Assembly (NCBI GenBank): GCA_038045265.1
Contig: JBBSYL010000010.1
Span: 582-64,581 of the forward strand
Source: Nanobdellota archaeon
GTDB lineage: Archaea; Nanobdellota; Nanobdellia; Pacearchaeales; GW2011-AR1
DNA length: 64,000 nucleotides
Reading direction: 5' to 3'
The position numbers and the translations under genes were made by a program. The first letter of the stretch is position 1, and every line of letters begins with the position of its first letter. The notes under the pieces were generated by a model. It was not told the origin of the DNA and searched no databases. It saw nothing but the letters and a program-made list of their open reading frames with translations. This document shows, piece by piece, positions 689 through 56,587 of the stretch.

Positions 689-775
689 ACCTGCTATAAG
701 AAGACGAGTTATTTAAATGTTATTTAATAATCAGTATAATAATTCTTAAATAATCTCATCAAACTTAAAAATTAG

Positions 776-10285: not shown

Positions 10286-10317
10286 AATTTAAATATATTG
10301 TAAAACTAGCATGATAA

Positions 10318-38170: not shown

Positions 38171-38911
38171 TTAAAGTCGCTTTCTAGAAAGAAAAATTAT
38201 AACAATTATACAGAAAGCAGCAAAGGCATAGGAAATCCACAAACGCATTCTTGCCTCTTTAGAAGTAAAAGTCAGGGTTTTGGCTTCTTTTTTCTCAGAA
38301 TTTTTTGAGTTTAGTAAGATTACTCCATTGTCTTCCTCTTGCTCGGGAGTTTTTTGTGTACTAACTTCTCTTGTTGAATTGGGGCTTGGTAAAACAACAT
38401 TGTCTTCCGGATTTCCTGCAGATCCCTCATTAGAACCTTGATCTTCTTCTGTTTCCTGAGAGGTCTCCTCCTCAGAAACATTGGAGGGAGGGTTAAAAAC
38501 TGAATTTTCTCCACAAGAATTTTCTGAATTCTTAGTTTCTTGCTCAAAAACCCAGGCTTCATTGCAGAAGTTCCAGGTCAAATTATCATTCTTTGCGTCG
38601 TCTAGGCTTGAAGTTTGGTGAACTATGCCGGAAGCATTTTTTATATAAATGACCGCATCTGAATTGTCTATCCATTGCTTTTCAAGTTGAACGATAAGAT
38701 ATCTCTCTATGTTTCCTGAGAGATTTATTATATCTCCGTCTTCATTTTCTAAGAAATAAGCGTTTAGATTTACTGTAAATTCGGAATAAAGTTCTATCCA
38801 TTCTTCTCCAGAATCTGCGCCTGGGGGATTAGATTCTACTTCTGAAATTATTAATGCATTTGCAAATGAAATAAAAAAGATAAAAATAAAGCTAATAGCC
38901 GTAGCTTTCAT
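38171..38911 (-). CDS. secreted lamin-tail-domain (LTD) protein with C-terminal TM anchor
   Basis: Signal peptide MKATAISFIFIFFISFANA. LTD motif ISEVESNPPGADSGEEWIELYS. C-terminal hydrophobic anchor. Start trimmed from 39013 to the internal Met at 38911. Confidence 0.6.
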   Translation of the reverse strand: MKATAISFIFIFFISFANALIISEVESNPPGADSGEEWIELYSEFTVNLNAYFLENEDGDIINLSGNIERYLIVQLEKQWIDNSDAVIYIKNASGIVHQTSSLDDAKNDNLTWNFCNEAWVFEQETKNSENSCGENSVFNPPSNVSEEETSQETEEDQGSNEGSAGNPEDNVVLPSPNSTREVSTQKTPEQEEDNGVILLNSKNSEKKEAKTLTFTSKEARMRLWISYAFAAFCIIVIIFLSRKRL

Positions 38912-39635
38912 GAAATACAATATTATTTTCAGAGTCGAATAGATAAATGGTGTCTCGGTCATTATTCCATATGCTTGTTTTGGAGTTCCAAAATATATCT
39001 GTTCTATTGTCATTTCCGCTTCCTGAGTGCAGATTCACCTCGGAATCTAGAAGAATATTAAACTTATATTGTTTTCTGCTTTCGTCTTTTAATATCCATC
39101 CTGAAAGATTAAATGGATTGCATATATTTTTAATTCTGACCATTTCTTCTTCTTCAGATACTTCAACATTTAAACATCCTGAATAATTTGAACTTTTCCA
39201 TATGCCTTTATTCCATTTAACTGCTTCCTTTTCTGCTTTGTCAAAGGCTTCAAGTTCTGACTCTTCCACAAGGAATTTTGAAGCTAAACCTAAAGAGACA
39301 AGTTCTAAATTAAGATATTTTTCATCTTGGGAATAAAGTCTAGCTAGAGTCCGACCATATTTTTCTATGCCTTGTTTCTCAATATAAATATTTTCCTTTT
39401 CATAAATTTTTAGGTAATTAAGGGATTTTATATAAAGGGGGGAAGATTTTTCCGGGGAATTTATATTTACTAACCTTACAATTCTTCCGTCTTCTAACTC
39501 TAATGTGTCTCCATCTATAACTCTTGCTAAAATAACTGATTCTAACTCTCTTTCAGACTCTGAGAAAATGAAAAAGATATTGGAAATTAATACAGTTAAT
39601 GCTAGAGCTATTAAAAAGGATATTTTCTTATTCAA
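38892..39635 (-). CDS. secreted thermonuclease (SNase-like) fused to a lamin-tail domain
   Basis: RVIDGDTLELEDGRIVRLVNINSPEK...YGRTLARLY (SNase catalytic region). C-terminal NPFNLSGWILKDES LTD-like. N-terminal TM/signal. Confidence 0.75.
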   Translation of the reverse strand: MNKKISFLIALALTVLISNIFFIFSESERELESVILARVIDGDTLELEDGRIVRLVNINSPEKSSPLYIKSLNYLKIYEKENIYIEKQGIEKYGRTLARLYSQDEKYLNLELVSLGLASKFLVEESELEAFDKAEKEAVKWNKGIWKSSNYSGCLNVEVSEEEEMVRIKNICNPFNLSGWILKDESRKQYKFNILLDSEVNLHSGSGNDNRTDIFWNSKTSIWNNDRDTIYLFDSENNIVFHESYGY

Positions 39636-40104: not shown

Positions 40105-40176
40105 GAGATATATATCTATAAATCAGTTATATAATCTCTGTGCTCCCTACAGACATATATAATCTTTTTGCCAAGA

Positions 40177-40187
40177 TTTATATAAAG
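40177..40187 (+). promoter_or_regulatory. TATA-like box (tttatataaag) ~20-30 bp upstream of trxB ATG
   Basis: AT-rich divergent intergenic region with several TATA-like elements. Confidence 0.25.
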
Positions 40188-40205
40188 ATATAATCAATAA
40201 AAAAG

Positions 40206-41380: not shown

Positions 41381-41863
41381 ATGAAGAGAAAAGGTTTATC
41401 TCCCGTTATTGCTACTGTCCTCCTTATTGCAATAGTGTTGCTTTTAGCGGCAATCATTTTCTTATGGGCGCGGGGCCTTCTTACTGAAAGAAATCAAAAA
41501 TTTGATGAACCTGTAGAAAATGCATGCGGAGATGTAAACTTCGAAGCTGAAGCATATTTTGATTCTGATAAATACACTTTAGGGGTAGTCAACAAAGGAA
41601 CCGTCCCAATATATAGTATAGAACTTAAAATAAGAAGAGATGGTGCGATAAGAGATCTTAAGGTATTATCTTTGGAAGATGGAAAATATGGTACAATAAG
41701 ATCTGGGGAATCTAAGCTTATAGATTTAGGAAATGAGGGGGATATTGAAGTAGGGGATGAGCTTGAAGTTATACCAATAATACTTGGGCAGAAAGGAGGA
41801 GTCAAAACACCTTTCCCATGTGAATCTGATCAGGGTCAGAGAATTAATATAAAATCAGAGTGA
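41381..41863 (+). CDS. archaeal type IV pilin (class III signal peptide, Pilin_N/DUF361-like)
   Basis: MKRKGLSPVIATVLLIAIVLLL matches the archaeal pilin N-terminal consensus. Confidence 0.7.
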   Translation: MKRKGLSPVIATVLLIAIVLLLAAIIFLWARGLLTERNQKFDEPVENACGDVNFEAEAYFDSDKYTLGVVNKGTVPIYSIELKIRRDGAIRDLKVLSLEDGKYGTIRSGESKLIDLGNEGDIEVGDELEVIPIILGQKGGVKTPFPCESDQGQRINIKSE

Positions 41864-41864
41864 A

Positions 41865-42365
41865 ATGGAAAGAAAAGGATTATCTGCTATTGTTGCAACT
41901 GTTATGATTATAGCTTTGACAGTCGCCGCTGCAGGGATAATAGCTAAATTTGCGATACCTTTTGTCAAAGGAGGCTTAGAAAGTAGTACAGAATGTGTGG
42001 ATTATCAAGAATATTTTAAATTTGATGAATCTCTTGGATTTAACTGTTTTGAACCAGATGAAAACTTAATTCTCTCTGTAAGGGCCAGCAATAATGTGGG
42101 GGGCGATGATAAGATTAAGGGTTTTAATCTTGTTCTATTTGGAGACGGTTTTTCTAAAGTTATTTCTTTAGAGAATAATTTGCAGATAAATGATTTAACA
42201 ATGTACTCTGGAAACGTAATAGAAATTCCTTCTCCTGGAGAAACATTTAGTTATAATTATACCGAAAGAGGAATTTATAATTTTGCAGAATTGTTTCCTG
42301 TATTGAAAACGGGAAAGGTATGCGAAAGAAGGTCTGATAGAATTTCCCTCAGGAGATGCGGATGA
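41865..42365 (+). CDS. archaeal type IV pilin
   Basis: MERKGLSAIVATVMIIALTVAAAG class III signal peptide. Confidence 0.7.
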   Translation: MERKGLSAIVATVMIIALTVAAAGIIAKFAIPFVKGGLESSTECVDYQEYFKFDESLGFNCFEPDENLILSVRASNNVGGDDKIKGFNLVLFGDGFSKVISLENNLQINDLTMYSGNVIEIPSPGETFSYNYTERGIYNFAELFPVLKTGKVCERRSDRISLRRCG

Positions 42366-42907
42366 CGAGAAGAGGGCAGGTTTGGATAGAGACTGTGCTT
42401 TATACTTTGATAGGGCTTGCACTGATTGGAATGGTGTTGGCATTTGCTCTTCCAAAAATAAATCAAACAAGAGATGAAATAATAGTAGATCAGACCATAG
42501 AATCCTTGAAAGAGCTGGATAACTTGATAAATGGTGTTGCTGATCAGGGCCCTGGAAACAGGAGAACGTATGAAATAGGCATCAAAAGAGGTAGCTTAAC
42601 CTTTAATTCTGAAGAAGATATAATTGAATTCAGAATAAAAGACTTGGCGGACCTTTACTCTGAAGAAGGTATAGAAATAGAAAATGGGAGAGTAAAAATA
42701 CTGTCCTCTTCCGGACAAAAGGACAAAGAAATTCTTCTTTCTCTAGACTATGAAAATAAAATAAACATTAGCTATGCTGGAAGAGATGAAATTAAGGAAT
42801 TTAGTGCGGCTCCAATACCATATAAACTTTCTGTAACCAATGAAAGACAAGTTGTCGGAGAGCTCGTTAATATAAATATAGAGGCCATATCTGGAAGCTC
42901 CAATTAA
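42356..42907 (+). CDS. type IV pilin-like protein (bacterial-like RG/QxxxE N-terminus)
   Basis: MRMTRRGQVWIETVLYTLIGLALIG, with Glu at +5 after the putative cleavage site. Confidence 0.6.
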   Translation: MRMTRRGQVWIETVLYTLIGLALIGMVLAFALPKINQTRDEIIVDQTIESLKELDNLINGVADQGPGNRRTYEIGIKRGSLTFNSEEDIIEFRIKDLADLYSEEGIEIENGRVKILSSSGQKDKEILLSLDYENKINISYAGRDEIKEFSAAPIPYKLSVTNERQVVGELVNINIEAISGSSN

Positions 42908-42944: not shown

Positions 42945-44471
42945 ATGGACCTTGTCATAAATCTCAAACCTCCCATACCTGCTCTTCCAAGAGTAACAGA
43001 CAAAAGTAAGGTAGATATTAGATATGTTTTGATTGCCCCCTACGCTGTAGCCCATATATATTGGGATGAAAAAACTTCTGAATTAGTTTATGAACTTGAA
43101 GAGCCCTTGCTTAACGAGCCAGAAAAGGCTATACTTGACAAGATTGAAGAAGGAATGCTCGAACTCATAAATGTTAATGTGGCTGTTGAGAAGACTTTAG
43201 AAGCAACAACAAATTATATAGACAAAACTGCAAGGCTTTTGATTGACGAATTTAATATAAAAATGTCTGAAGAGGGCTATCAAAAAATATTTTATTATCT
43301 TTACAGAGATTTTATTGGCTTAAATGAGATAGAACCCATCCTTAATGATTATTATATAGAAGATATAGAATGTAATGGTGTTGGAACAAGTGTGTATGTT
43401 ATACACAGAATATATAGGAATCTAAGAACAAATATACTTTATTCTGATGTAGATAAACTCGCAAATTTTGTTGAGAAGCTTGCGCAAAGGACTGGAAGAT
43501 ATATTTCCTATGCCCAGCCCCTACTAGATGGCAGTCTACCAGATGGAAGTAGAGTCAATGCAAGTTACACAAAAGATGTTACCTCTAAAGGTCCAACTTT
43601 TACAATACGTAAATTTACAAAAGTTCCTTGGACACCAATACAACTTATTGGACTTGGAACTGTGAGTCCCGAGATGCTTGCTTATTTCTGGATACTTCTC
43701 GAATACAAGTCTAGTTTTATGATAACTGGAGGTACTGGAACTGGTAAGACAACATTGCTTAATGCACTTGCCTTCTTCATTCCTCCCGAAGCGAGAGTTG
43801 TTAGTATTGAAGACACAAGAGAAATAAATTTGCCAAGAGAAAACTGGCTTCCAGCAGTTGCAAGACCAAGCATCGGAATAGGAAATGTTGGTGAAGTAGA
43901 TCTTTTCTCCCTATTGAAAAGCTCATTCAGACAGAATCCGGACTATTTAATAGTGGGAGAAGTAAGAGGAAAAGAAGCTTATGTCTTATTCCAAGGAATG
44001 GCTTCTGGTCATGCCTCTTTGAGTACAATGCACGCCGATTCTGTAGAGACATTGATAAGAAGGTTACAAACACCTCCGATAGAACTTCCGCCGAGCCTTG
44101 TTAACACATTAGACTGTGTTGCAGTAATAAGTCATGGATTGGTTAATAATAGGGATATAAGAAAAGTCAGAGAGATTGTTGAAATTATAAATGTAAATAA
44201 TGACGGTACAGCGATGGTTAATACTCCAATGGTTTGGGATCCAGCAAAAAATGTATTTTACTTCAAAAAGCAAAGCAAAGTCTTTGAGAAAATTGCATTA
44301 AAGCATGGAGTAGCACTTGAAAAAATAAGGAGGGAACTTCTTGCAAGAAGTAAACTCCTTTATGAATTATATAGGAATAAAATATTTGATTTTTATGAAG
44401 TAGGAAAAATAATCAATGAGTATTATAAAAATCCTGCAGAGGTCCTTACAAAATACGATATAAAAGAGTAA
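42945..44471 (+). CDS. type IV pilus/secretion ATPase (FlaI/ArlI/TadA/PilB family)
   Basis: Walker A GGTGTGKTTLLNAL. Walker B DYLIVGEVRGKEA. His box GHASLSTMHAD. Confidence 0.85.
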   Translation: MDLVINLKPPIPALPRVTDKSKVDIRYVLIAPYAVAHIYWDEKTSELVYELEEPLLNEPEKAILDKIEEGMLELINVNVAVEKTLEATTNYIDKTARLLIDEFNIKMSEEGYQKIFYYLYRDFIGLNEIEPILNDYYIEDIECNGVGTSVYVIHRIYRNLRTNILYSDVDKLANFVEKLAQRTGRYISYAQPLLDGSLPDGSRVNASYTKDVTSKGPTFTIRKFTKVPWTPIQLIGLGTVSPEMLAYFWILLEYKSSFMITGGTGTGKTTLLNALAFFIPPEARVVSIEDTREINLPRENWLPAVARPSIGIGNVGEVDLFSLLKSSFRQNPDYLIVGEVRGKEAYVLFQGMASGHASLSTMHADSVETLIRRLQTPPIELPPSLVNTLDCVAVISHGLVNNRDIRKVREIVEIINVNNDGTAMVNTPMVWDPAKNVFYFKKQSKVFEKIALKHGVALEKIRRELLARSKLLYELYRNKIFDFYEVGKIINEYYKNPAEVLTKYDIKE

Positions 44472-44513
44472 GGTCTATGAAAACTATATAAATATGGTGT
44501 CTAATTTATATTA

Positions 44514-44675
44514 ATGGAAAAAGAGGATGTAATATCGCTTGCTCACCTCCTGTCTGCTATGAAAGATTCTGCTATAAAGCTTGAAGAAGCGGTGAAAAAG
44601 AAAGATGCTGAAAAAATTACTGAAATAAAAAGAGAAATACTCAGATTTCAAAAAGACGTAGAGAGGGTTATATGA
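44514..44675 (+). CDS. small 53-aa helical protein translationally coupled (ATGA) to the platform gene
   Basis: Hand-translated as MEKEDVISLAHLLSAMKDSAIKLEEAVKKKDAEKITEIKREILRFQKDVERVI. Below the ORF-track size cutoff. Confidence 0.3.
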   Translation: MEKEDVISLAHLLSAMKDSAIKLEEAVKKKDAEKITEIKREILRFQKDVERVI

Positions 44676-45967
44676 TAGAGGAACTTTTGAAAAATATAGA
44701 TAATGAAATAGACATACTTAAGGAAATAGCCTTGTATAATAATAAATTATCTGAAGCGAATCAGCGAGAGAGAAAAATACTTCTTGCGGCAATAAGCTCC
44801 TTGAGAGAAGGAATAAGAATATTAAATGCTTCCGTTCCGAAAATAATGCAGGGTATATCTTTGGCTAAGAAATTGCCTGGAAAACACGAAAGCGGTTTGG
44901 AAAGAATATCTTTTAAGAGAAATGAAAAGGGAATGGATGCTGTCTTAAGAAGCGAAGATAAAGAAAGATTCTTATCTGAACTAAGAATAAATAACGAGGC
45001 GCTGGAAAAGTTGGGGGGAGAAAAACAAGAACAAGAAGTATCTTATGCCAAATTCAAAGGTTCAAACTTTTATCTTAAAGCATCAAATAGAATGTTTGTC
45101 GGACTTGCCAGAAACATGATAAAGCGGGGAAAATTCAAAACACTTGCTACGACCCTTAAAAAATCAAATTTAGACATTTTATTTGAAAGCTATGTTTCTG
45201 CAATTTTCTTTACAACTTTTCTTGCTGTATGCTTTTCGGCCGTACTCTATGTCCTTCTTATATTCTTAGACTTCAGTGTGAGCGCGCCATTTATTCAAAT
45301 ATATTCTGATACACATTTGAAAAGAGTAGGAAGCTTAATATGGGTGCCTTTGATCATTCCAATTCTTTTCTTTCTAGGTTCTTATTTCTACCCTTCAACT
45401 GAGAGGGGGAGTATAGAAAGAAGAATAGATCAAGAGCTCCCATTTGCTGTCGTCCATATGAGCGCAATATCCGGCTCCGGGATAGAACCAACCAGCATCT
45501 TTAAGATAATTGTTCTTGGAAAAGAATATCCTTATCTTAAGAAAGAAGTAAGAAAAATCCTTAATCAAATAAATCTTTATGGTTATGACCTGGTTACCGC
45601 ACTTAACAATGTTGCCAAAAATTCACCAAGCAAGAAACTGTCTGAGTTGCTTTCTGGGATGGCTTCTACAATAACTTCTGGGGGGAGCCTATCTAATTTC
45701 TTTGAAAAAAGAGCTGAAACATTATTGCTTAATTATAGACTCGAAAGAGAAAAATTCACCAAATCTGCTGAAACTTTCATGGACCTCTATATAACTGTGG
45801 TAATCGTAGCGCCCATGATCCTCCTACTTATTTTCATACTTCTCTCGATAAGCGAGTTTGGGCCAAGTATCTCTCCAGGATATATTGCATTTATGATAAT
45901 TGCTATAATCACTTTAATCAATATTATATTCCTTGGAATAATTCATATTAAACAACCTGCATACTAA
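44672..45967 (+). CDS. pilus assembly platform protein (TadC/FlaJ/T2SS-F-like), part 1
   Basis: Cytoplasmic N-domain followed by multiple TM helices. Adjacent to the ATPase. Confidence 0.65.
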   Translation: MIEELLKNIDNEIDILKEIALYNNKLSEANQRERKILLAAISSLREGIRILNASVPKIMQGISLAKKLPGKHESGLERISFKRNEKGMDAVLRSEDKERFLSELRINNEALEKLGGEKQEQEVSYAKFKGSNFYLKASNRMFVGLARNMIKRGKFKTLATTLKKSNLDILFESYVSAIFFTTFLAVCFSAVLYVLLIFLDFSVSAPFIQIYSDTHLKRVGSLIWVPLIIPILFFLGSYFYPSTERGSIERRIDQELPFAVVHMSAISGSGIEPTSIFKIIVLGKEYPYLKKEVRKILNQINLYGYDLVTALNNVAKNSPSKKLSELLSGMASTITSGGSLSNFFEKRAETLLLNYRLEREKFTKSAETFMDLYITVVIVAPMILLLIFILLSISEFGPSISPGYIAFMIIAIITLINIIFLGIIHIKQPAY

Positions 45968-45968
45968 A

Positions 45969-46823
45969 ATGAAAATAAAAAAAGTTCACTGGATAGGAAT
46001 TGGATTCGGCTTAATACTCATAGTCGCAGGTTTAATCTTTTTTCTTAGTAATGAAGAAAAAAACTTGCTATTCTTTATAATCGGATTGGGAATAACTGTA
46101 GGAATACTTCCATTTATTGTGGATGTAATTGTTCAAAACAAGAAAGCGCAGGAGATAAATGAAATGTTTCTTGAATTTTCTAGAAATCTCGCTGAAAGTG
46201 TTGCAACAGGGACACCTATAAGTAAGAGCATAATTAATTTGAGTAGAAGGAATTATGGCCCTCTAACAGAACACATAGAAAAGTTGGGCAATCAAATTTC
46301 ACTTGGAATTCCTCTAAGTAAAGCTTTATTTATTTTTGCAAGAGATGTAGATAATAATGTTATAAGTAGAGCAGTCTCCCTTATGAGTGAAGCAGAAAAG
46401 GCAGGCGGAGAGATTGCCGCGATATTAAATTCTGTTTCTCTATCTATAGCCGAGATAGAAAAGTTGAAGAGTGAAAGAAAAGCAGCCATATCTGGCCTAA
46501 TAGTTCAAGGATATATAATATTCTTTATATTTATTGGCATAATGCTTATAATGGAATTTAAAATTTTGCCTTTAGCTTTGCAGATAGATACGTTGAGCGG
46601 ATTAAGCCATGGATCTGTAAGTGCTACCGCATCGCCAGGTCAAGGCAATGCAGGGGAATCACTGCCCAATCTGTTTCTCTATCTATTGCTTGTTCAGGGA
46701 TTCTTTACAGGATTTGCAATAGGGAAACTGGCCGAGGGTTCTTTAAAGGCGGGAATAAAGCATTCTTTCATAATGATCGTATCTGCTCTGCTTATTTCTA
46801 CGGGAGTCAGGGCATTTATTTAG
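45969..46823 (+). CDS. pilus assembly platform protein (TadB/FlaJ/T2SS-F-like), part 2
   Basis: N-terminal TM, soluble helical domain, C-terminal TMs. The platform appears split into two genes. Confidence 0.55.
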   Translation: MKIKKVHWIGIGFGLILIVAGLIFFLSNEEKNLLFFIIGLGITVGILPFIVDVIVQNKKAQEINEMFLEFSRNLAESVATGTPISKSIINLSRRNYGPLTEHIEKLGNQISLGIPLSKALFIFARDVDNNVISRAVSLMSEAEKAGGEIAAILNSVSLSIAEIEKLKSERKAAISGLIVQGYIIFFIFIGIMLIMEFKILPLALQIDTLSGLSHGSVSATASPGQGNAGESLPNLFLYLLLVQGFFTGFAIGKLAEGSLKAGIKHSFIMIVSALLISTGVRAFI

Positions 46824-47571
46824 TTACAAGGTAAAATAACTCATTATCCGATCTAAAAATTTTAAACTTGTATTCGAGTCTTGAAAGCATTTTTTCAAAC
46901 CAAGTCCTGTTTGGAAACTCCATCTTTTTACCCGAGATCTTTCTTGTTGGGAAACTAACTAGGATAAATTTGCACTTTACAATTTTTATTATTTTTTCAG
47001 CAAGTTTATGGCCTTTCTTTTCTATTATATCTAAAACCTTAAAGATTAAAACCAAATCTACTGTGGGCAAGGAATTATCTATTTTTCTTAAGTCGTATAT
47101 AAATGTTTTTCCTCTTATTTTATTTTCTTCGAAAAAGGAAGATACTAAAGAAAGATCTGAACTATTTATATCGGAGGCATAATATTGTATTTCTGGTTTT
47201 GCTAGTGCGATAGGATTGAGTCCACATCCCAGATCAAGTATAGAAGAAATCTGCAGGGAGTCAATTATCTTTTTAAGTTCTGGATAGAAATTGGCCCTTT
47301 CTGATGTAGAAAGGTGGTTCTTAAGAATATTGTCCTTGTTTCCAGATATGTCTGAAGATTTCCTGAATCTTCCAATATAACTCCTAAGATTATGTCTTAT
47401 CTCTTTTATGAGGACCTTTTTGTCTTTCTGGTTTAAATCTTCAAAATTTATTTTTTTGTTCTGCATAGATTCTGTAAGTAAGACCCTTACAAAATCTGAA
47501 TCTGCTCCAGATAACTCTTTCTTTTTCTTTATTTCAAAAATAAATTCATCAATTTTATCCATGCTTTTCAT
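46816..47571 (-). CDS. FmrO/ArmA-family 16S rRNA (guanine-N7) methyltransferase homolog
   Basis: HLSTSERANFY...SSILDLGCGLNPIAL...VDLVLIFKVL...LVSFPTRKISGKKMEF aligns with the ArmA/RmtB pattern (H.ST.ER ... SSILDFGCGFNPLAL ... FPIKSLSGKEKG), compared with ArmA as recalled from memory. Confidence 0.55.
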   Translation of the reverse strand: MKSMDKIDEFIFEIKKKKELSGADSDFVRVLLTESMQNKKINFEDLNQKDKKVLIKEIRHNLRSYIGRFRKSSDISGNKDNILKNHLSTSERANFYPELKKIIDSLQISSILDLGCGLNPIALAKPEIQYYASDINSSDLSLVSSFFEENKIRGKTFIYDLRKIDNSLPTVDLVLIFKVLDIIEKKGHKLAEKIIKIVKCKFILVSFPTRKISGKKMEFPNRTWFEKMLSRLEYKFKIFRSDNELFYLVTK

Positions 47572-47621
47572 TTAATAAATAGCATGAGAAGTTATATAAA
47601 TTTACTATTCCAGAGTCTTCC

Positions 47622-48317
47622 ATGAAAAGGAGAGGTTTAGCTCATTTAGAAATAGTACTTGCATTTGTTCTATTTATTGGAGTTATAGGATTTGGATTTT
47701 ATTTTCTTGGACACAGCAATAAAGTAAATTTAGTTGAGAAAAATTTAGATTATATCGAGAGAGAGATAAAAAAAGACCTTACGTCTGAAGCTTCAGCACA
47801 AAGTTTAAAGATCAATACAAGAACGGGAAATTCATTTGCTGTTGAGCTAACCAAGGAAAGTGGAGAGAATTTTGCAGTAGAAAATTCCTCAGGAGATGTG
47901 ATAAATTCGAAATTTGACAATGGGATTTTATATTTTGATGCACAAAGCGGAGATATTTATACAATAAGAAAAAGCTTAGATATAAATGAGATAAATGATT
48001 TTTCAGGGAGTCTACCTGCACATGATGAAAATAATTACAAGCTCGGGCCAGAAATAGAATCAAGTGTATATTCTGAAGAAAAAGCTCTTGGACTTAATGA
48101 AAGCTATTATAATAATTATGGAACTCTTCTTGAGAGATATGGTATAGGAAACAGGGTCAATTTTGGATTTCAAATAATTTTTGAGGGAGATGGAAGAATA
48201 ACTGCTGAAAGCGAAGTGCCTGAAAGTTATGAAATATTTTTAAGAAGTGAGAGGGCCGAATTTTTAAGAAGCGGGGGAGAATTGGAATTTGCGGAGGTAA
48301 TAGTTAAGGTATGGTAA
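47622..48317 (+). CDS. type IV pilin-like protein
   Basis: MKRRGLAHLEIVLAFVLFIGVIG (RG, then Glu at +5). Confidence 0.55.
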   Translation: MKRRGLAHLEIVLAFVLFIGVIGFGFYFLGHSNKVNLVEKNLDYIEREIKKDLTSEASAQSLKINTRTGNSFAVELTKESGENFAVENSSGDVINSKFDNGILYFDAQSGDIYTIRKSLDINEINDFSGSLPAHDENNYKLGPEIESSVYSEEKALGLNESYYNNYGTLLERYGIGNRVNFGFQIIFEGDGRITAESEVPESYEIFLRSERAEFLRSGGELEFAEVIVKVW

Positions 48318-48721
48318 ATAAAAGAGGACTGCTTAGAATAATTGAAGTCATGATAGCCTCCCTTATAATTATCTCTTCTGTGCTTATCGTAGTTACAAAT
48401 AGAGACATAGGAAAAAGAGAAAATTTATGCTCTGAAATTCCAAATCTCTTAGAAGAGCTAGGTAAAAACAGAGATATAAGAGAGCAGATATTAACTGACG
48501 ACGCAAGCGGAGCTAATAGCTTCCTAAGAGAGAGGATAAATAATCCTGCCTACTTATTTGAATTTAAGATATGCGAAGTTGATGATATTTGTACTAGCAA
48601 TCAAGTAACTGCACAAGATTCAAATGTATGCGCTGGAGAGAGGATTATAAGTGCAAATGCCCAACAACAAAGTGGGTTTAATCCCAAGAAAGTAAAATTA
48701 TTTCTCTTTAAATACGGATAA
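48311..48721 (+). CDS. type IV pilin-like protein
   Basis: MVNKRGLLRIIEVMIASLIIISSVLIVV. Confidence 0.55.
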   Translation: MVNKRGLLRIIEVMIASLIIISSVLIVVTNRDIGKRENLCSEIPNLLEELGKNRDIREQILTDDASGANSFLRERINNPAYLFEFKICEVDDICTSNQVTAQDSNVCAGERIISANAQQQSGFNPKKVKLFLFKYG

Positions 48722-48753
48722 ATACTAACAATCTTTATAAAGTTCTTTAGTGT

Positions 48754-51700
48754 TTGAGAGATATGAAAAAGGCGAAGAGATTAATTAGATATTTTATTGT
48801 TATTATTGCTATTTTTTCTTTCTTATTTTCTATTAATTTTGTTGGTGCAGTTACTGCTGGAGATATATTAATTGTTGGGTATTCTGGAGGTTCAGGGCAA
48901 ATTGAGGGACTTACAAAAGTTGTGGATGGACAATATACTTATACTGTTCCTGCTGGAGTTACTCAAATTAAGGTTCAGCTCTGGGGGGCGGGCGGTGGAG
49001 GAGGGGCGGGAGGAACTGGGAGCTTAGGAAGTAGTGGAAATCTTGAGGGCGGAGGTGGAGGCGCATATGGCGAAGTTATTTTAGATGTTTCTAGTTCACA
49101 AACATATAATGTAGCTGTTGGAGCTGGAGGGAATGGTGTAGGATATAACTTACAAACTCCCCCTACTTCAGGAGGCAATTCTGTTTTTGGAACATATTAT
49201 GCAAATGGTGGGAGTGCTGGCGCTGTTATACCTAATGGTTGGAATTCGCATCCCGGAGGAACCGGAAGCGGAGGAACATTCAATACTCCTATTGGAACGA
49301 ATGGGGGGAGTGGTGGCTCGATAGGGGCGGTAAATGGTTGTGGTAGTGGAGGAGCAGGAGGCGTAGCTCCTGGAGGGAATGGAGCTCAAGCTGGCCCAAG
49401 TGCGGGGGCTGGTGGAGGAGCTTCTGGAGGAGGTGCGGAATATGCAGGGAATGGGGGAGCGGGAGGCAATTGCGTACTCGCACAAAGTGGTCAGAACATC
49501 CCAGGAGGGAATGGATTTTTGTATGGAGGTGGAGGAGGAAGTAGTGGAGTGACTACTCTTGCTGTAGGAAATGGAGGGAAGGGTGCAGAAGGACAGGTGA
49601 AAATAACTTATCTTTCTGTTGGGAGCCAAGGAAGTCAAACAGTTCAACCTACTTCCGGTTTGTGCGTACCTAATCAAACAATTATTTCATTATATCAAGA
49701 AAGCAATTCTCATGGAGCGATTTATAACCAAACATTCAATGATGTAAATGCTGGAATTGGTGTATGTTATGATAAAATTTTTGGATTCAATTATACTGGA
49801 GATACAAATCCTCAAAGATGTGGAGCCGAGAATGCAAATTCTGTTGTTAAAGTGATTAGCAAGAATAATGCACATGTAGAAGATAAATCTTTGAATAATT
49901 ATCCATATAGTTTATGCTATGGTGATTTGAATTGTAAACTTGAAGATAAAACATACACCCCATCTGCAAATGAGAGAGCAGTACTTTACTTATCATCCAA
50001 TACAAACGCACATGTATCTAGCACGGCAGGATATGATTTTATTGTTTATTGCACAAGCAACAATGGGCCTGTGCCTGGAACTGGAGAAATTATTTCTGCA
50101 GAATGGAAAGATGAATTTGAAAATAATTTGGCAGTGGATGAAAATGGAAATAATAAAAGCAATGTAAATTCTACCGTAAAATTAGTTGCTAAAACTACTT
50201 TTATAAATACTGAAATTACATTTGATATAAAAGAAGAAGATACTGGCTTACCTGATGCAAATATAAGAACTGGAGCAATAGCATTGAAAGCGACTACAAA
50301 TGGTGAGGGAATTGCTTCTATAAGCTGGCTCATAAATGACACTGACATGACTAAAGCAGGAGTAGGGCCTGCAGAATTTTATTTCACTGCAAGCGTGTTT
50401 GAAGAGAGTAAACAGAGCGGTATTTTGCTGACAAGCAAAACTCCTACGCCTCCTGAAAAAGAAATTGAAATTGAGATAGCTGGAATAAAAGATAAGGGGT
50501 TGTACTTTACAGGAGTGCCTGTTGAGATAAGTTATGTGCTTAGAAAGCCTAGTCAGGGAAGAGGATTAGAGTTAACCTGGAAAATAATTGAAGACAATTA
50601 TGAAAGTGATGATTTGACTTTCGATTATACTTTCCAAAATCCTGGGCAGAAGACAATTCATCTTACTGCAACAAATTCTTTTGGAGGAAGAGCAGAAAGG
50701 CAGGTAAGTGTCCTTGCAATAGGAGATAATGGTATATTTGCATTTATAGATAATCCGAGATTTAATGAAGTTTTGCCTGTAAGCAGTGACAATGTAAGAG
50801 TATTATATAATGCAAGCGGGAGCTACGTCGTAAATAGTACATATGATAAAACTCAATGTTTAGACATTTTGGCAAGAGGAAGATTAGTCTGTCTTGCCGG
50901 AAGATGCCCTAACGCTGTTGGAAACCCTCCAGCTGGATGCAGTGCACTAGTTGAAGAGAATAATAAAGGATATGAAAATCTTAATTTCACTTGGACAAGA
51001 TATGGAAAAAGTTCAATAAATACCTTTTCAAGATTTGGTTTGAAGCAGGATTACACCATATTTGGAAACAGCGAGTATTCTAATAAATTAAATGACAGAG
51101 CGTTTAAACTTGTCCTTAATTATACCAACGAGAGTGAAGATTTAAGTCTTCAACAGGAATTTATGAGAAATTATACTATTGGGCAATGCATCAATGATGG
51201 AAGGGGATTTGTTAAAATAGATAGTAAAGGAAATGTACTGAAAGTATTGGAAACAACTAACAAGAATAGTGGGGATTTTGACCCTAATGCGTGCAGGGCA
51301 GTTAGTGGAATAGTCTGCTGTCCAACAGGACATTTATGTGGAGCAAATGGATGTTATATTCCTGCTTCTACACCAGATATAGTAGAAGACTTGCCTGGAT
51401 GCTCAAGATATAGAACAGAACTGGCGTGTCTTGACGCTGTAGAAACAACTAATGCCTGCAGTGATGGAGGTTTGACTGCCGCTACCTCATGTCAATGGGT
51501 TGAGCAAACAGGAGGAAGTGGAGAATGCAAGGAGTATACTAGTATAATTGAGACGAGCAATGGGGCGGTGGCAGGAACATGCGTACAAGGCGTGAGAAAT
51601 CTTACCTCATGTGTTAATGGATTCAATAAGATAAAAATAGACACCACGTATACTGGAGGAAGTAATCCTGCAAATAGTTGTTTAAGTGAGGATGACTGCA

Positions 51701-51855
51701 AGAATAAAGCTGGAGAATTTACAGTACCATGTGGAAGGCCTGCGTTTGAATTGCCTTTCTTTGGAATAGAGCAACTATTAAGTGCACTTCTGATAATAGC
51801 TATAATCTATTCAATTTTAATTAAGACTAGATATATACCTAAAAAGAGAAAATAA
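48754..51855 (+). CDS. giant (1033 aa) cell-surface protein with ~300-aa glycine-rich domain, Cys-rich modules and C-terminal TM anchor
   Basis: N-terminal hydrophobic segment. VQLWGAGGGGGAGG...GGGGGAYGE poly-Gly blocks. Many paired Cys. C-terminal LLSALLIIAIIYSILIKTRYIPKKRK. Confidence 0.6.
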   Translation: MRDMKKAKRLIRYFIVIIAIFSFLFSINFVGAVTAGDILIVGYSGGSGQIEGLTKVVDGQYTYTVPAGVTQIKVQLWGAGGGGGAGGTGSLGSSGNLEGGGGGAYGEVILDVSSSQTYNVAVGAGGNGVGYNLQTPPTSGGNSVFGTYYANGGSAGAVIPNGWNSHPGGTGSGGTFNTPIGTNGGSGGSIGAVNGCGSGGAGGVAPGGNGAQAGPSAGAGGGASGGGAEYAGNGGAGGNCVLAQSGQNIPGGNGFLYGGGGGSSGVTTLAVGNGGKGAEGQVKITYLSVGSQGSQTVQPTSGLCVPNQTIISLYQESNSHGAIYNQTFNDVNAGIGVCYDKIFGFNYTGDTNPQRCGAENANSVVKVISKNNAHVEDKSLNNYPYSLCYGDLNCKLEDKTYTPSANERAVLYLSSNTNAHVSSTAGYDFIVYCTSNNGPVPGTGEIISAEWKDEFENNLAVDENGNNKSNVNSTVKLVAKTTFINTEITFDIKEEDTGLPDANIRTGAIALKATTNGEGIASISWLINDTDMTKAGVGPAEFYFTASVFEESKQSGILLTSKTPTPPEKEIEIEIAGIKDKGLYFTGVPVEISYVLRKPSQGRGLELTWKIIEDNYESDDLTFDYTFQNPGQKTIHLTATNSFGGRAERQVSVLAIGDNGIFAFIDNPRFNEVLPVSSDNVRVLYNASGSYVVNSTYDKTQCLDILARGRLVCLAGRCPNAVGNPPAGCSALVEENNKGYENLNFTWTRYGKSSINTFSRFGLKQDYTIFGNSEYSNKLNDRAFKLVLNYTNESEDLSLQQEFMRNYTIGQCINDGRGFVKIDSKGNVLKVLETTNKNSGDFDPNACRAVSGIVCCPTGHLCGANGCYIPASTPDIVEDLPGCSRYRTELACLDAVETTNACSDGGLTAATSCQWVEQTGGSGECKEYTSIIETSNGAVAGTCVQGVRNLTSCVNGFNKIKIDTTYTGGSNPANSCLSEDDCKNKAGEFTVPCGRPAFELPFFGIEQLLSALLIIAIIYSILIKTRYIPKKRK

Positions 51856-51898
51856 AATCGGGCGGTATATTTTTAAAATACCTTTCACTTGGGAATGT

Positions 51899-54571
51899 AT
51901 GAGAAGAGGTTTGATTTTGTTGTCCCTTGTAATTGTGGCGATATTATTGATAAGCCCCGCATTAGCTAATGTAAAGATTCAGTCTGAAAATCTTAAAAGA
52001 TTATACTCTGGAGGAGATACCATCACAGGTATAATCAAAGTGAACATTACAAATGAGCCTGCAAACAATCAGGTTGTAACTAATTTTAAGGGGAATATAA
52101 CTTTAATAGAGCTCATAAGAGCAAATAATCTTGCTGAAGGAATCAATTATAATTGTAGTATCTATGGATGCAATGCAGGTTATGAAGACGAGGGGAGTGT
52201 CAATACACTCTCTGTTGATTCTTCTTCTGCTGAATTTGTAGGCTTCAAACTTAATAGAGCAGATAGAATTGATAGTTTAGATGTGGTAATTTCAAGCGAC
52301 TCTGGCCCTTCGTGTTCCCCCCAGTTAAGTATTGATGTACTTGGAAAAGAAGAGTATAGATTACATAATACTAATTACACGAGTGAGAGGTGCGGTTCTA
52401 AGAATTACGGATGCTTTGATCTTTCAAGAGCAGACAAAAAAGTTGAAATAGGCTCTGAGGGAGTATGTGAGCAAATGGAATTGTGGCCAGCTCCAGCTTA
52501 TGAGATCAGTGCAAAAATTACAAACAGCACAGGCACTACTGGAATAATAAAAGCTGAACTACTTGATGAGCAAGGAGGAGTTTATGGGGCTGTTGGAGAG
52601 TGTGAAATGCCTCTACAAAAAGAAAGCGTTGAAGAACTAAAATGTACAATAGGCAATCCAATCATGGAGCGAAAAAATTATACAGTATGTATTTCAGCAA
52701 GCGGAGGAAACTATAAGATAAATGCTGAAGACTCTGGAAGAATATGCGGTTCTGCTAGGACAAATCTAGGATTTGGATTCAGCTTTGATTATGAAGTATC
52801 TGCACAGGCATTAGAATATGATGAAGTAAATTTTTCCTTAAACGATGCGTTCGGAAGAGCTTATGGCGGGCTGGAGATTGGGCAAATTGCAGACGATTAT
52901 TTGAATGAAATCTATGGAGGAAATTGTTCTGATGGATGTTATATTCCTCTTTTAATAACAAGCAACTTGGACCAAAATATAGACTTTTCAAGACCTAAAG
53001 CTGAGTACTTTTTCCAAGGCAACAAATTAAGTGAAGAGACATTTTATTCTCTTGAAAAGAAAGATGCTGTAATAAATGCAAAAAATATGGAGCTCGATTT
53101 GGAAAAGGCCGAATTTACAATACCTCTTAACTCAAGTGAAAATAAATTAAGAATATTTGTTGGGGGAAGCAAGATCTATAATGATATAGCAATAAACATA
53201 ACTAAGGGTTTTGATTTTGACATAATCCCTAAGTTTGCTTTGATAGGCATACAAACTGAATATTCTATTCTTACAAATGACAATATAAGTAAAACAGAAT
53301 GGAAGTTTGGAAATTCTGCTGTAAAACAAAGCAATGGAAAAAGCATTACAAATAGAATAGATGAAGGGGGTGAATATACTCTTGAAGTAAAGGCGACAAA
53401 TACTCGCGGAGCTGTAAGTATTAAAAACATTAAAGTAATTGTTGGGGATCCTGAGGAATCTTTAAAACAATTGATAAATCAATCAGAAACAGGAATAAAA
53501 AAGATAGAAGAATATCTAAATACGCTTCCTCAATGGGCAAAGAGCAAGATATCTGAAAAAATTGAACTTGAAAAACTAAAAAGCGAAGTGATTACCGTGA
53601 AAAATGTTGACAATGCAGGAGATGAAAACAAGACTATTGCATTAATAGATAGAATTAGCGCTTTAAATATTCCAATTTCCATAAAAGAATCTGATAAGGG
53701 TAGTTTGCCATTAGCTTTAGGATTCTCAAATATAAATACAAAATATATAGAAAAAATCTCTGCCTCTGAAATATCTGATGCACAGAGAGAAGAATTTACT
53801 AATAATCTCCTTTTCTGGATAGATGAAAATTATGCTCCCTTAGTAGAGTTTAAAGTTATAGAAAAAAATACTGCCTCCGGGCCGGAACCATTAGTTACAC
53901 AAATTTCAGTTACTCTGAATAAGAAGAAAGAAGAGCTAAGTGAGTCTTATTTGATTATAGATTATCCAATTGAAAATATTTATTTTGCTGAAGATTATGG
54001 TGCTATCGAAATAGTATCTGACGAAACAAGCACAGGCACTTACATTCTTGCAAATGAGGAAAATAAAATAGAGTTTATGGTAAGTGGAAAAGTTGAATTC
54101 TCTGAGCTCGGAATGTATATCTCTCCAGTTGTTAGCGATATTGGGAGTTATGCAAATATTGATTTTGAAAAAAAGCAATTCCCTGCTGGTCTTTTAACCT
54201 TCTGGGTTGCTATATTAATTATATGTGCGCTTGTTGTTTATATAATACTTCAAGAATGGTATAAGAGGCATTATGAAAATTACCTCTTTAGAAATAAAGA
54301 TGATCTATATAATTTGATGAATTTTATATATAATACTAGAAAAGGAAGCATAACTGAACAGGAGATGAAGAAAAAGCTTCTAAGCAATGGGTGGAGTGGA
54401 GAACAGATCTCATATACTGCCAAGAAACTTGATGGGAAAAGAACAGGGATGTTTGAAATACCTATTTTCAGGTTCTTTGAACAGAAAAAAATAAAAGAAG
54501 AAATGGAAAAGAGACAGAATATAGGAAATAGAAGCGGAAGATTTATTAAAAGACCGAATTTAGGTGTATAA
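51899..54571 (+). CDS. large (890 aa) surface protein with RRG-type N-terminus, Ig/PKD-like repeats, C-terminal TM and ~110-aa cytoplasmic tail
   Basis: MRRGLILLSLVIVAILLISPALA. C-terminal TM WVAILIICALVVYIIL followed by a charged tail. Stop overlaps the GTPase start. Confidence 0.6.
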   Translation: MRRGLILLSLVIVAILLISPALANVKIQSENLKRLYSGGDTITGIIKVNITNEPANNQVVTNFKGNITLIELIRANNLAEGINYNCSIYGCNAGYEDEGSVNTLSVDSSSAEFVGFKLNRADRIDSLDVVISSDSGPSCSPQLSIDVLGKEEYRLHNTNYTSERCGSKNYGCFDLSRADKKVEIGSEGVCEQMELWPAPAYEISAKITNSTGTTGIIKAELLDEQGGVYGAVGECEMPLQKESVEELKCTIGNPIMERKNYTVCISASGGNYKINAEDSGRICGSARTNLGFGFSFDYEVSAQALEYDEVNFSLNDAFGRAYGGLEIGQIADDYLNEIYGGNCSDGCYIPLLITSNLDQNIDFSRPKAEYFFQGNKLSEETFYSLEKKDAVINAKNMELDLEKAEFTIPLNSSENKLRIFVGGSKIYNDIAINITKGFDFDIIPKFALIGIQTEYSILTNDNISKTEWKFGNSAVKQSNGKSITNRIDEGGEYTLEVKATNTRGAVSIKNIKVIVGDPEESLKQLINQSETGIKKIEEYLNTLPQWAKSKISEKIELEKLKSEVITVKNVDNAGDENKTIALIDRISALNIPISIKESDKGSLPLALGFSNINTKYIEKISASEISDAQREEFTNNLLFWIDENYAPLVEFKVIEKNTASGPEPLVTQISVTLNKKKEELSESYLIIDYPIENIYFAEDYGAIEIVSDETSTGTYILANEENKIEFMVSGKVEFSELGMYISPVVSDIGSYANIDFEKKQFPAGLLTFWVAILIICALVVYIILQEWYKRHYENYLFRNKDDLYNLMNFIYNTRKGSITEQEMKKKLLSNGWSGEQISYTAKKLDGKRTGMFEIPIFRFFEQKKIKEEMEKRQNIGNRSGRFIKRPNLGV

Positions 54572-55209
54572 TGTTAAGGATTATAAAAAAGTTTTCTAAA
54601 AGAATACTTGCAACTCTTTTTGGAAGAAAAGATAACATAAAAATAGGTTTTTATGGTCCTCCTAATGCTGGGAAGACTAGTTTAGCAAATAAAATATGTA
54701 AAGACTGGACTGGGGAAGAGATAGGAGTAGTAAGTAAAATACCTCACGAGACAAGGCATGTGCAGTTTAAGGAAAAAGTAGAGATAAAACATAAGGGGAA
54801 AGTGCTTATGTTCAAAATGGTCGATACTCCTGGAATAGCCACTAAGATAGACTATGAGGAATTTATAAAATTCGGAGTTAAGAAGAAAGATGCTAAGAAA
54901 AGAGCTAAGGAAGCAACTCAGGGAATTATAGAGTCAATACAGTGGCTTGATGATATGGATGCAGTTATAGTAGTTATTGATGCTTCTGAAAATCCTTACT
55001 CGCAAGTGAATATTACAATAATAGGAAATCTTGTTGCAAGAAAAATTCCTCTCCTGATAGTTGCAAATAAAATAGATTTGAAGAAAGCGAATATGAAGAA
55101 AGTTGAAAATGCATTTCCAGAATATGAGGTTGTGGGAATAAGTGCAAAAGAAGGAATTAACATGGATGATTTTTACGAAGCCTTATTCAGGCTGGCAAAA
55201 AAAGCATAA
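54571..55209 (+). CDS. small Ras-like GTPase
   Basis: G1 GPPNAGKTS, G3 DTPG, G4 ANKID. Confidence 0.75.
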   Translation: MLRIIKKFSKRILATLFGRKDNIKIGFYGPPNAGKTSLANKICKDWTGEEIGVVSKIPHETRHVQFKEKVEIKHKGKVLMFKMVDTPGIATKIDYEEFIKFGVKKKDAKKRAKEATQGIIESIQWLDDMDAVIVVIDASENPYSQVNITIIGNLVARKIPLLIVANKIDLKKANMKKVENAFPEYEVVGISAKEGINMDDFYEALFRLAKKA

Positions 55210-55210
55210 A

Positions 55211-55603
55211 ATGATAAAAAAGAGCAAGTTTAAAGGATTAAGCCTGCATGTAATACCCTATTCTGAAATTCGAGACTTGAGTATAGGGGAGAGAGTGAAG
55301 AAAGTTTTGAAACTTATTTTGGGGAGCAGAATAGTTATAATTCAAGGAAGATTAAGGCCAGAAGAAGAAGCAAGATTGATAGAGGATACTATGGCTATGG
55401 TCGAACATATTAAAAATTTTAAAGGAATAGAATTGGCAGTCATAGAACCTAATATGAAAGAGGAAAATTTACTTATAAGAATGAAGCATGGACTTGCTAA
55501 GAGGCTTGTTGGAGAAAGTAGCGCCCTTACAATAATAGGCCCTAGCTCTCTAGTCAAAGAAATAAAGAAAGATCCAAAAAAAATGGAAGTATTACTTGGT
55601 TAA
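55211..55603 (+). CDS. DUF2073-like protein (GTPase partner)
   Basis: Start adjusted to the ATG just after the GTPase stop. Family assignment is from recollection of the conserved archaeal GTPase/DUF2073/Zn-ribbon trio. Confidence 0.35.
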   Translation: MIKKSKFKGLSLHVIPYSEIRDLSIGERVKKVLKLILGSRIVIIQGRLRPEEEARLIEDTMAMVEHIKNFKGIELAVIEPNMKEENLLIRMKHGLAKRLVGESSALTIIGPSSLVKEIKKDPKKMEVLLG

Positions 55604-56167
55604 TTAACTTCCATTTTTGTGTAAAGGAAAATCTTTTGTTTCTATCTGAAAGTTATCATTTTTATGAATTTTAAATATTACTTTAAAATCTTCAGATTTG
55701 CTTATCTTTGTAAAAAGATAAAGTATTTTAGTGATACATGCCATGGAAAATTTTGAATAAGGCTTTGAATCTAGCTCATCCTTAATCTTTTTTATCTCTT
55801 CTGAAAAACCCTCCTCCCAATTTATTATAGCTTTATTCATTACTCCGATAAGATAATTCTCATCTAGATCTAATTTATGAGCTAACTCGTCTCGGACATC
55901 GTTTAAAGCCTTTAGTGTTTTAAATTCTGTATCACTAATTAAACTTTGTTCTTCTAGATATTTTAATCTGTTCATATGCTCTTTAAATTTTTTATTTTTT
56001 GAATATCCGTAATTAATATTAAATAATTTTAAGGAAATATACTCAGCATAAATTGCTAATAAAAGAATTACTTCTCTCCCAAAGTAAGATAAATTTAGTG
56101 TATTTATATCAGCGATTAGGCTATGAATCTTGTGTAGATCTGTCTCTTCTTCCATATAAAAAGACAA
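55604..56167 (-). CDS. hypothetical helical protein with R-x4-H motif (possible HEPN-like)
   Basis: 187 aa. RDELAH seen mid-protein. Opposite strand, inserted between the DUF2073-like and Zn-ribbon genes. Confidence 0.35.
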   Translation of the reverse strand: MSFYMEEETDLHKIHSLIADINTLNLSYFGREVILLLAIYAEYISLKLFNINYGYSKNKKFKEHMNRLKYLEEQSLISDTEFKTLKALNDVRDELAHKLDLDENYLIGVMNKAIINWEEGFSEEIKKIKDELDSKPYSKFSMACITKILYLFTKISKSEDFKVIFKIHKNDNFQIETKDFPLHKNGS

Positions 56168-56206
56168 TAATTAGCTTATATAAATCTTTATTAACCTTTT
56201 AACTTA

Positions 56207-56587
56207 TTGAAGTTTATGCCCTATAGATGTGTTCATTGCAATAAAATTTTTGAAGATGGCTCTGATGAGGTGCTTAATGGATGTTCTAGTTGTCACAGCA
56301 AGTTTTTCTTTTATATAAAAAAGGAAAAGCTACCCGAAATACTTAAGAGTGGTATTGCGGAGATGGAACTTAGCTCGAATGAAAAGGATCAAATAGAAAA
56401 GGATGTAAGAGAAATCACAGGCATAGAAAATGAAGAAACCCCAGTATTTCTTGACTTTGAAAGTGTTAAAATAGTTAAGCCTGGAAAGTACTTGATAGAC
56501 ATATCTAAGCTTTTCTCTTTTGATAAACCTCGAGTGTATAAGCTAGAAGATGGAAAGTATATTGTAGATTTAAATGTGGGAAATTAA
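56207..56587 (+). CDS. Zn-ribbon protein (DUF2072-like)
   Basis: N-terminal CVHCNK...CSSCHSKF Cys4 ribbon. 126 aa. Confidence 0.5.
   Translation: MKFMPYRCVHCNKIFEDGSDEVLNGCSSCHSKFFFYIKKEKLPEILKSGIAEMELSSNEKDQIEKDVREITGIENEETPVFLDFESVKIVKPGKYLIDISKLFSFDKPRVYKLEDGKYIVDLNVGN

Follow-up and report, generated by a model that had tools for sequence, protein, structure and literature searches.

The stretch of DNA analysed here, called the window throughout, comprises 64,000 nucleotides of a contig from a Nanobdellota archaeon (JBBSYL010000010.1, assembly GCA_038045265.1), and its content is archaeal, with genes for PCNA, primase, the proteasome, FttA/aCPSF1, TrmB, OapB/OapC and an archaeal CCA-adding enzyme. 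Within it, a minus-strand gene at 46816-47571 encodes a methyltransferase of the Arm/FmrO family, the family of the enzymes that form 7-methylguanosine at position 1405 of 16S ribosomal RNA (m7G1405). The gene lies antisense inside a locus of pilus genes, and our work provides evidence that it is an old and vertically inherited gene of DPANN archaea (Diapherotrites, Parvarchaeota, Aenigmarchaeota, Nanoarchaeota and Nanohaloarchaeota). The gene and the elements at its two ends are:

46816-47571, minus strand: gene for an FmrO/Arm-family methyltransferase dependent on S-adenosylmethionine (SAM), 251 amino acids (aa), predicted to be of the 16S rRNA m7G1405 type (from the open reading frame (ORF), motifs, PF07091, PDB matches, the AlphaFold2 model and the residue map)
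47572-47621, no strand: divergent intergenic region of 50 bp separating the methyltransferase gene from the pilin-like gene at 47622 (from ORF coordinates)
47593-47600, no strand: single shared TATA box (TATATAAA on the plus strand, TTTATATA on the minus strand), 21 nt from each ATG (from coordinates and the clade consensus)
46816-46823, no strand: convergent 3' overlap of 8 bp between the methyltransferase gene and the second T2SSF gene, T2SSF2 (from ORF coordinates)

The minus-strand ORF runs for 251 codons from an ATG start to a TAA stop, and its translation carries the blocks NHLSTSER, SSILDLGCGLNPIAL and FPTRKISGK, as a preliminary description of this DNA had reported. The public gene call for the identical protein (P0001) begins three codons later and gives 248 aa. 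Because the first ATG yields exactly the 50-bp gap to the divergent gene that is typical of the clade, the ATG at 47571 is probably the true start. The identical protein is also present on a 13-kb Logan contig from run ERR3858115.

The preliminary description had proposed an FmrO/ArmA-like enzyme, and profile, fold and motif comparisons agree with that placement. The Pfam model FmrO (PF07091) matches with 56.9 bits against a gathering cutoff of 27 (E-value 2.9e-15; profile positions 79-243 of 255), and none of the generic class I models Methyltransf_25, Methyltransf_12 and MTS passes its cutoff. The significant sequence matches in the PDB are exclusively m7G1405 enzymes, namely ArmA (3FZG; E 1.3e-13), RmtB (3FRH/3B89), Sgm (3LCU), RmtF (6PI9) and RmtC (6PQB/8GHU). 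An AlphaFold2 model built from 32 homologs (mean predicted local distance difference test score 93.7, predicted template modelling score 0.90) has helices at residues 3-11, 22-35 and 45-62, then 76-102, followed by a Rossmann domain of alternating strands and helices; the two-domain Arm/FmrO layout, a helical N-terminal domain for 30S-subunit docking plus a class I Rossmann domain, is present in it. In a Foldseek comparison with the PDB, the first 15 matches were Sgm, RmtB, RmtF, RmtC and ArmA, with template modelling (TM) scores of 0.78-0.81 to Sgm, RmtB and RmtF across 260-277 columns, a length that means that the helical N-terminal domain is covered; Sgm was the best structural match (TM 0.81, E 1e-15). 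Generic methyltransferases come next, at E 8e-9 and TM about 0.5, and a generic methyltransferase fold was rejected, its E-value lying seven orders of magnitude behind those of the m7G1405 enzymes. Membership in the Arm/FmrO family is, in our judgement, a near certainty.

The conservation of functional residues was followed in an alignment of the window protein and 79 DPANN orthologs from genome loci with ArmA, RmtB, RmtC and RmtF from resistance plasmids; counts out of 80 refer to the DPANN sequences, and residue roles were taken from the Sgm structure (PMC2896518) and from the cryo-electron microscopy structure of RmtC on the 30S subunit (PMC10288597). In Sgm, mutation and isothermal titration calorimetry assign cofactor binding to R108, G135, D156 and D182 (PMC2896518). 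These residues correspond to R92, G117, D134 and D160 here and are kept in 80/80, 80/80, 79/80 and 77/80 orthologs, respectively, and the HxSTxER motif retains its His in 79/80, Ser in 80/80, Glu in 79/80 and Arg in 80/80. In RmtC, Tyr60, Lys204 and Lys236 position the flipped G1405 (PMC10288597); their equivalents are Phe or Tyr in 80/80 (Phe in the window protein), Lys in 79/80 (Lys in the window protein) and Lys or Arg in 68/80 (Arg in the window protein). The same enzyme distorts helix 44 (h44) with Arg241 and Met245, both essential, together with Arg211 (PMC10288597). Here the first is Lys or Arg in 77/80 orthologs and the second Met in 80/80, while the Arg211 position is variable (Lys in 32/80), as it also is in ArmA and RmtF. 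Among the docking residues of the N1 subdomain, RmtC Arg50 is matched by Arg in 80/80, Lys43 by Lys or Arg in 77/80 and Lys47 by Lys in 76/80, and the R39 equivalent is basic in most orthologs. The N2 subdomain is short, too short for RmtC K67, R68, K71 and K72 to be aligned. Judged from its sequence, the DPANN enzyme is a family member in evolutionary terms, with the catalytic and target-handling apparatus kept, yet on a distinct branch.

The locus around the gene reads as follows:

41381-42907, plus strand: three pilin-like genes (41381-41863, 41865-42365 and 42356-42907), with Pilin_N (PF07790) matching the first and, weakly, the second, and with class III signal-peptide N-termini
42945-46823, plus strand: pilus assembly ATPase gene T2SSE (42945-44471), a 53-aa ORF (44514-44675) and the T2SSF platform genes (44672-45967 and 45969-46823), from Pfam matches, the small ORF being kept in relatives
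47622-54571, plus strand: distal part of the locus, with pilin-like genes (47622-48317 and 48311-48721) and genes for surface proteins (48754-51855, Gly-rich/PKD, and 51899-54571), from N-termini and the Pfam families Gly_rich_2 and PKD_4, the order being kept in relatives

With the predicted cleavage marked by a slash, the N-termini are MKRKG/LSPVIATV (41381), MERKG/LSAIVATV (41865) and MRMTRRG/QVWIETV (42356) upstream, and the class III signal-peptide N-termini MKRRG/LAHLEIV (47622) and MVNKRG/LLRIIEV (48311) downstream. Pilin-like genes thus flank the methyltransferase gene on both sides, and no other minus-strand gene occurs in the 15.4-kb block between 40206 and 55603, so that the earlier picture of a lone antisense gene embedded in a pilus locus stands.

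What does not stand is the conclusion drawn from it, that the orientation suggests insertion or horizontal acquisition. On that account the gene would be an aminoglycoside-resistance determinant that entered the pilus locus recently. The lone orientation would fit it, as would the family's best-known occurrence, on resistance plasmids and in antibiotic producers, and the overall GC of the gene (0.300) is at the low end of the local range. Across the window, GC is about 0.30-0.39 except for one Gly-rich stretch. The loci of relatives, searched with the proteins that neighbour the gene in the window, contradict it. In practically every locus that could be judged the gene order is thioredoxin reductase (TrxR), three pilins, T2SSE, T2SSF1, T2SSF2, the antisense methyltransferase, the divergent pilin-like gene u231, u136, large surface proteins, a GTPase, OapB, OapC and the CCA enzyme, and a few loci have extra genes between the methyltransferase gene and T2SSF2. 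The same antisense slot is filled in nearly all of about 80 species by orthologs that are 38-53% identical (median 47%). Moreover, the GC content at third codon positions of the gene (GC3, 0.29, against 0.21-0.31 in the neighbours) and its codon-usage distance (0.267, against 0.13-0.41) lie inside the neighbours' ranges and give no foreign signature, and no transposase, integrase or repeat signature adjoins the gene, whose neighbours are pilus genes. Because the gene order is conserved at 38-53% identity and GC3 and codon usage resemble those of the neighbours, the opposite-strand position is ancestral for the clade and not an insertion scar.

Both ends of the gene are tied to its neighbours. 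Across 44 related loci the gap between the methyltransferase and u231 start codons is 48-52 bp, with a mode of exactly 50, and a TTTAWATA element lies at most 3 nt from the midpoint of the gap in 43 of the 44; under mononucleotide shuffling the mean was 0.2 and the maximum 3. The clade consensus of the gap is A-TTTAWATA-NN-TT. A spacing of 21-22 nt between TATA box and ATG recurs at other promoters of the window (689-775, 10286-10317, 40105-40205 and 56168-56206), and the divergent pair 40104/40206, with a gap of 101 bp, has two separate TATA boxes in contrast to the one centred box between the methyltransferase gene and u231. From this spacing we infer a bidirectional promoter in which one box would serve two leaderless transcripts. 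At the other end, a convergent 3' overlap of 4-50 bp is found in 48 of 79 related loci. Gene packing probably holds the antisense position: the gene has a promoter element in common with one neighbour and its end overlaps that of the other, so that relocating it would harm both, which would explain why it has stayed where it is. The same two ties speak against a recent arrival, as does the fact that the closest bacterial enzymes are just 27-29% identical, and we consider recent acquisition extremely improbable.

More generally, TATA boxes stand 21-22 nt before start codons throughout the window, which would imply mostly leaderless transcripts.

The distribution of the family points to inheritance as well. 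A word-indexed search returned 496 clusters at 90% identity; among the 120 listed, all carry PF07091 and all are 45-55% identical to the window protein except two that are closer, and the named clusters among the matches listed are metagenome-assembled genomes of Nanoarchaeota or Pacearchaeota. An exhaustive search gave 1083 clusters at 50% identity with E-values up to 1e-3, and 98 with E-values up to 1e-30. In a scan of one genome per GTDB species, 519 genomes hold a relative, and the best 80 of the 519 are all labelled Woesearchaeota, Pacearchaeota, Nanoarchaeota, Nanoarchaeia, Parvarchaeota or "archaeon"; since the top tblastn identity among these species genomes is 52%, the species of the window itself is missing from the GTDB representatives. 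A second search seeded with a distant member returned exclusively Nanoarchaeota-type names among the matches listed, and the genomic context of the most distant representatives is archaeal in every informative case (the P0267 locus is too short to judge). Several relatives are labelled 16S rRNA (guanine(1405)-N(7))-methyltransferase by the Joint Genome Institute. No bacterial intermediates, for example from the candidate phyla radiation (CPR), were seen among the matches listed (lists of 120-150), and a 2026 preprint on CPR methyltransferases does not mention the archaeal family. The gene is therefore old and vertically inherited in DPANN archaea and not a recent insertion; an ancient transfer between domains may lie at the root of the lineage.

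An archaeal homolog had been expected to be unusual, and the numbers above, together with two publications, correct this expectation. As early as 2010, Husain et al. described NEQ545 of Nanoarchaeum equitans as the "first archaeal ortholog" in the Arm family, with perfectly conserved catalytic motifs and a strongly diverged N-terminal domain (PMC2896518). In 2013, Podar et al. placed the homolog among 15 Nanoarchaeota genomic signature genes and noted that the Nanoarchaeota lineage made few gains, two type II/IV secretion components being among them (PMC3655853). Our literature search did not find FmrO together with archaea, and found NEQ545 in no paper beyond that of Husain et al.

What, then, would the enzyme do? 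We propose that it is a constitutive, vertically inherited Arm/FmrO 16S rRNA methyltransferase of a DPANN archaeon from the Woesearchaeota/Pacearchaeota group. By homology, its three-helix N-terminal domain would dock on the h44/h45/h24/h27 surface of the cell's own mature 30S subunit, and the enzyme would distort h44, flip the equivalent of G1405 and methylate its N7, the outcome being a native modification of the decoding centre. Insensitivity to 4,6-disubstituted deoxystreptamine aminoglycosides would be a by-product and not the purpose, and the antisense placement would need no role in pilus biology. That this is a housekeeping m7G1405-type methyltransferase acting on its own 30S subunit, vertically inherited and packed into a pilus locus, seems to us probable. 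For m7G1405 as the specific target our confidence is similarly good, tempered by the replacement of the RmtC His54 equivalent by Arg and by an activity that is predicted only.

Several observations weigh against this proposal. The first concern the docking and target-handling parts of the protein. His54 of RmtC, an N1 residue, is near-universal and essential (PMC10288597). It contacts G1516 in RmtC; its equivalent, residue 63 of the window protein, is Arg in 80/80 orthologs and in 49/50 of the nearest cluster representatives. The Thr207 equivalent is Asp in 80/80 and the Asn248 equivalent Pro in 66/80, the loop 237-246 (RmtC numbering) is two residues shorter in the DPANN orthologs, and the RmtC docking pair K20/Y21 is aligned to Glu/Leu, with lysines just upstream. 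At the level of the whole protein, NF000466, the NCBIfam equivalog model for the Rmt 16S rRNA (guanine(1405)-N(7))-methyltransferase, scores 103.5 bits and does not reach its cutoff of 250, which means that Rmt function cannot be transferred automatically; pairwise, the window protein is 27-29% identical to four bacterial references (52-70 bits), and the bacterial m7G1405 enzymes are 24-44% identical among themselves (91-193 bits). We know of no report of m7G1405 as a native modification in any archaeal rRNA; G1405 is generally regarded as universally conserved. The nucleotide could not be read from the DNA at hand, as no Rfam family at all, 16S rRNA included, reaches its gathering score in the 64-kb window and the conserved 16S sequence 1394-1407 occurs in none of 94 loci. 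In the literature searched there was no functional work or activity data for any archaeal member, and Husain et al. considered the orthodox function of NEQ545 unclear (PMC2896518). Lastly, so strict a linkage to pilus genes could point to a function that we have discounted.

The protein-level differences could indicate the same fold and cofactor chemistry directed, through a diverged docking domain, at a different substrate, either some other small-subunit nucleotide or a different RNA. The invariant Arg and Asp at the His54 and Thr207 positions, the shortened loop, the short N2 subdomain and the distance to the equivalog cutoff would all fit such an enzyme, as would the strong divergence reported for the N-terminal domain of NEQ545 and the unclear function stated for it (PMC2896518). 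However, the residues that position G1405 or distort h44 (equivalents of K204, K236, R241, M245 and Y60) and those that dock (R50, K43 and K47) are retained, and the full-length fold, N domain included, superposes on Sgm and RmtB. In addition, the canonical His occurs in 22 of 138 more distant archaeal relatives, which places the change to Arg within one continuous family. We therefore hold a different substrate to be unlikely, if the most serious competitor of the m7G1405 assignment.

The linkage to pilus genes raises another explanation, in which the protein would be a component of the pilus system, for example a pilin methyltransferase, or would be co-regulated with host attachment. Bacterial prepilin peptidases N-methylate pilins, and no pilin N-methylation activity is assigned in this locus; the gene is strictly conserved within the locus in about 80 species and has its single TATA box in common with a pilin-like operon. 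Against this, both the fold and the basic, conserved N domain match a ribosome-docking enzyme, and the translation has no signal peptide and no membrane segment. The collinear block also includes unrelated housekeeping genes, those for TrxR, the GTPase, OapB/C and the CCA enzyme, and its synteny is thus no sign of pilus function in particular. Moreover, distant relatives are found in other surroundings: one adjoins diphthamide-synthase and CarS-like genes and another form III RuBisCO and NFACT genes, both without pilus genes. In another DPANN genome, a 41%-identical relative with the canonical His54 (locus L095, 6001-10006; GCA_964457955.1) heads a co-directional series of genes for S6e, eIF2-gamma, a PIN protein, Rpo7, Spt4, S24e, Kae1 and Bud32, and thus stands beside genes for ribosomal proteins and a translation factor. 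A pilus function is accordingly very unlikely in our view; the methyltransferase gene is probably not a pilus gene, and its association with the locus is positional.

Set beside the known enzymes, the proposed housekeeping methyltransferase compares as follows. Like ArmA, RmtB, RmtC and RmtF, it has two domains and a similar length (251 aa, compared with 251-281), and it carries the HxSTxER, DxGCGxNP and SFPT(K/R)xxSG(K/R)..M blocks with the residues for SAM binding and for handling G1405. Unlike these acquired enzymes, it has Arg in place of His54, a loop two residues shorter and a short N2 subdomain, and its gene is chromosomal, vertically inherited and off mobile elements. The producer enzymes of actinomycetes, Sgm, KgmB, GrmA and FmrO, have identical cofactor-binding residues and, like the window gene, are chromosomal and not mobile, and they are constitutive, as is predicted for the window gene; in contrast to them, the window gene has no aminoglycoside biosynthesis genes nearby in the window. 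Sgm itself differs in belonging to a longer subfamily with a larger N domain, and is about 22% identical in the structural alignment. The closest counterparts in kind are NEQ545 and its Nst1 ortholog, in their published description: all are DPANN Arm/FmrO proteins with conserved catalytic motifs, a diverged helical N-terminal domain and a predicted function. By that description, the window protein differs from NEQ545 in coming from the mesophilic, AT-rich Woesearchaeota/Pacearchaeota group, and the accessible portions of the two papers make no mention of a slot in a pilus locus, a shared TATA box or the change of His54 to Arg (PMC2896518, PMC3655853). The existence of archaeal members was thus known already, and the value of the present analysis is corrective (the gene is neither an insertion nor unusual) and descriptive. 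Three points seem to be additional to the published notes: how large the family is in genomes of the Woesearchaeota/Pacearchaeota type, the fixed antisense slot with its shared TATA box and 3' overlap, and the clade-wide change at His54.

Some other features of the window deserve mention. Between the T2SSE ATPase gene and the first T2SSF gene, the 53-aa ORF (MEKEDVISLAHLLSAMKDS...; 44514-44675, plus strand) is called likewise in six related loci (L001-L006); no Pfam family is recorded for it, and it is probably a small part of pilus assembly that has been conserved. Two of the pilin-like proteins on the plus strand, those of 42356-42907 and 47622-48317, have Glu at +5 after the predicted cleavage at Gly (RRG/QVWIE and RRG/LAHLE), a hallmark of bacterial type IV pilins that is not typical of archaeal pilins. 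The GC content rises to 0.51 at 48875-49624 (genome about 0.33). This peak falls on the Gly-rich domain (GGGGGAGG...) in the 1033-aa surface protein (48754-51855) and is therefore due to amino-acid composition, not to foreign DNA.

Elsewhere, a 512-aa ORF (32973-34511, plus strand) matches both the small subunit (PF01896, weakly) and the large subunit (PF04104) of DNA primase, which suggests a fused PriS-PriL primase; a fused primase is known in Nanoarchaeum equitans. The OapB and OapC genes (55142-56587) are split by an opposite-strand ORF of 187 aa (55604-56167) that has no Pfam match. In relatives the gap between the two is empty, or a PemK/MazE toxin-antitoxin pair sits beside OapB (L003), and this differing content marks a variable spot. 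The GTG start of the OapB ORF makes it reach 68 bp into the GTPase gene and has probably been set too far upstream, given that the relatives' proteins are 124-136 aa long. The presence of OapB/OapC hints at a replication origin nearby. The predicted protein of 38892-39635 (minus strand) combines staphylococcal-nuclease and lamin-tail domains; it may be a nuclease that is secreted or displayed at the surface, as would be plausible in an episymbiont that scavenges nucleotides. ARAGORN found no tRNA gene in this gene-dense 64-kb window; such genes may be located outside it, or they may have escaped notice because they are split or contain introns.

Among the clinical causes of pan-aminoglycoside resistance, the Arm/Rmt methyltransferases are a major one, and it is not settled where the genes borne by pathogens came from. 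In this setting it is tempting to speculate that m7G1405, known solely as a mark of antibiotic resistance, is a constitutive native mark across Nanoarchaeia, made by an enzyme coupled in its transcription, through the symmetric TATA box, to an operon for pilin-like and adhesin proteins with which these episymbionts may attach to hosts. We regard this extended idea as decidedly doubtful; if true, the tuning of ribosomes and the attachment to hosts would be switched in concert, or one would be traded against the other depending on which way TBP/TFB (TATA-binding protein and transcription factor B) sits on the shared box. The Arm/Rmt enzymes of pathogens would then go back to housekeeping enzymes of uncultivated lineages, antibiotic producers not being their source. 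The proposed housekeeping function has consequences of its own. A large archaeal branch with vertical inheritance would give the m7G1405 chemistry a native role other than resistance, since there is no obvious reason why these organisms should resist aminoglycosides, and the archaeal decoding centre would gain one more native modification. In resistome surveys, DPANN hits in metagenomes would then be housekeeping genes and not resistance genes.

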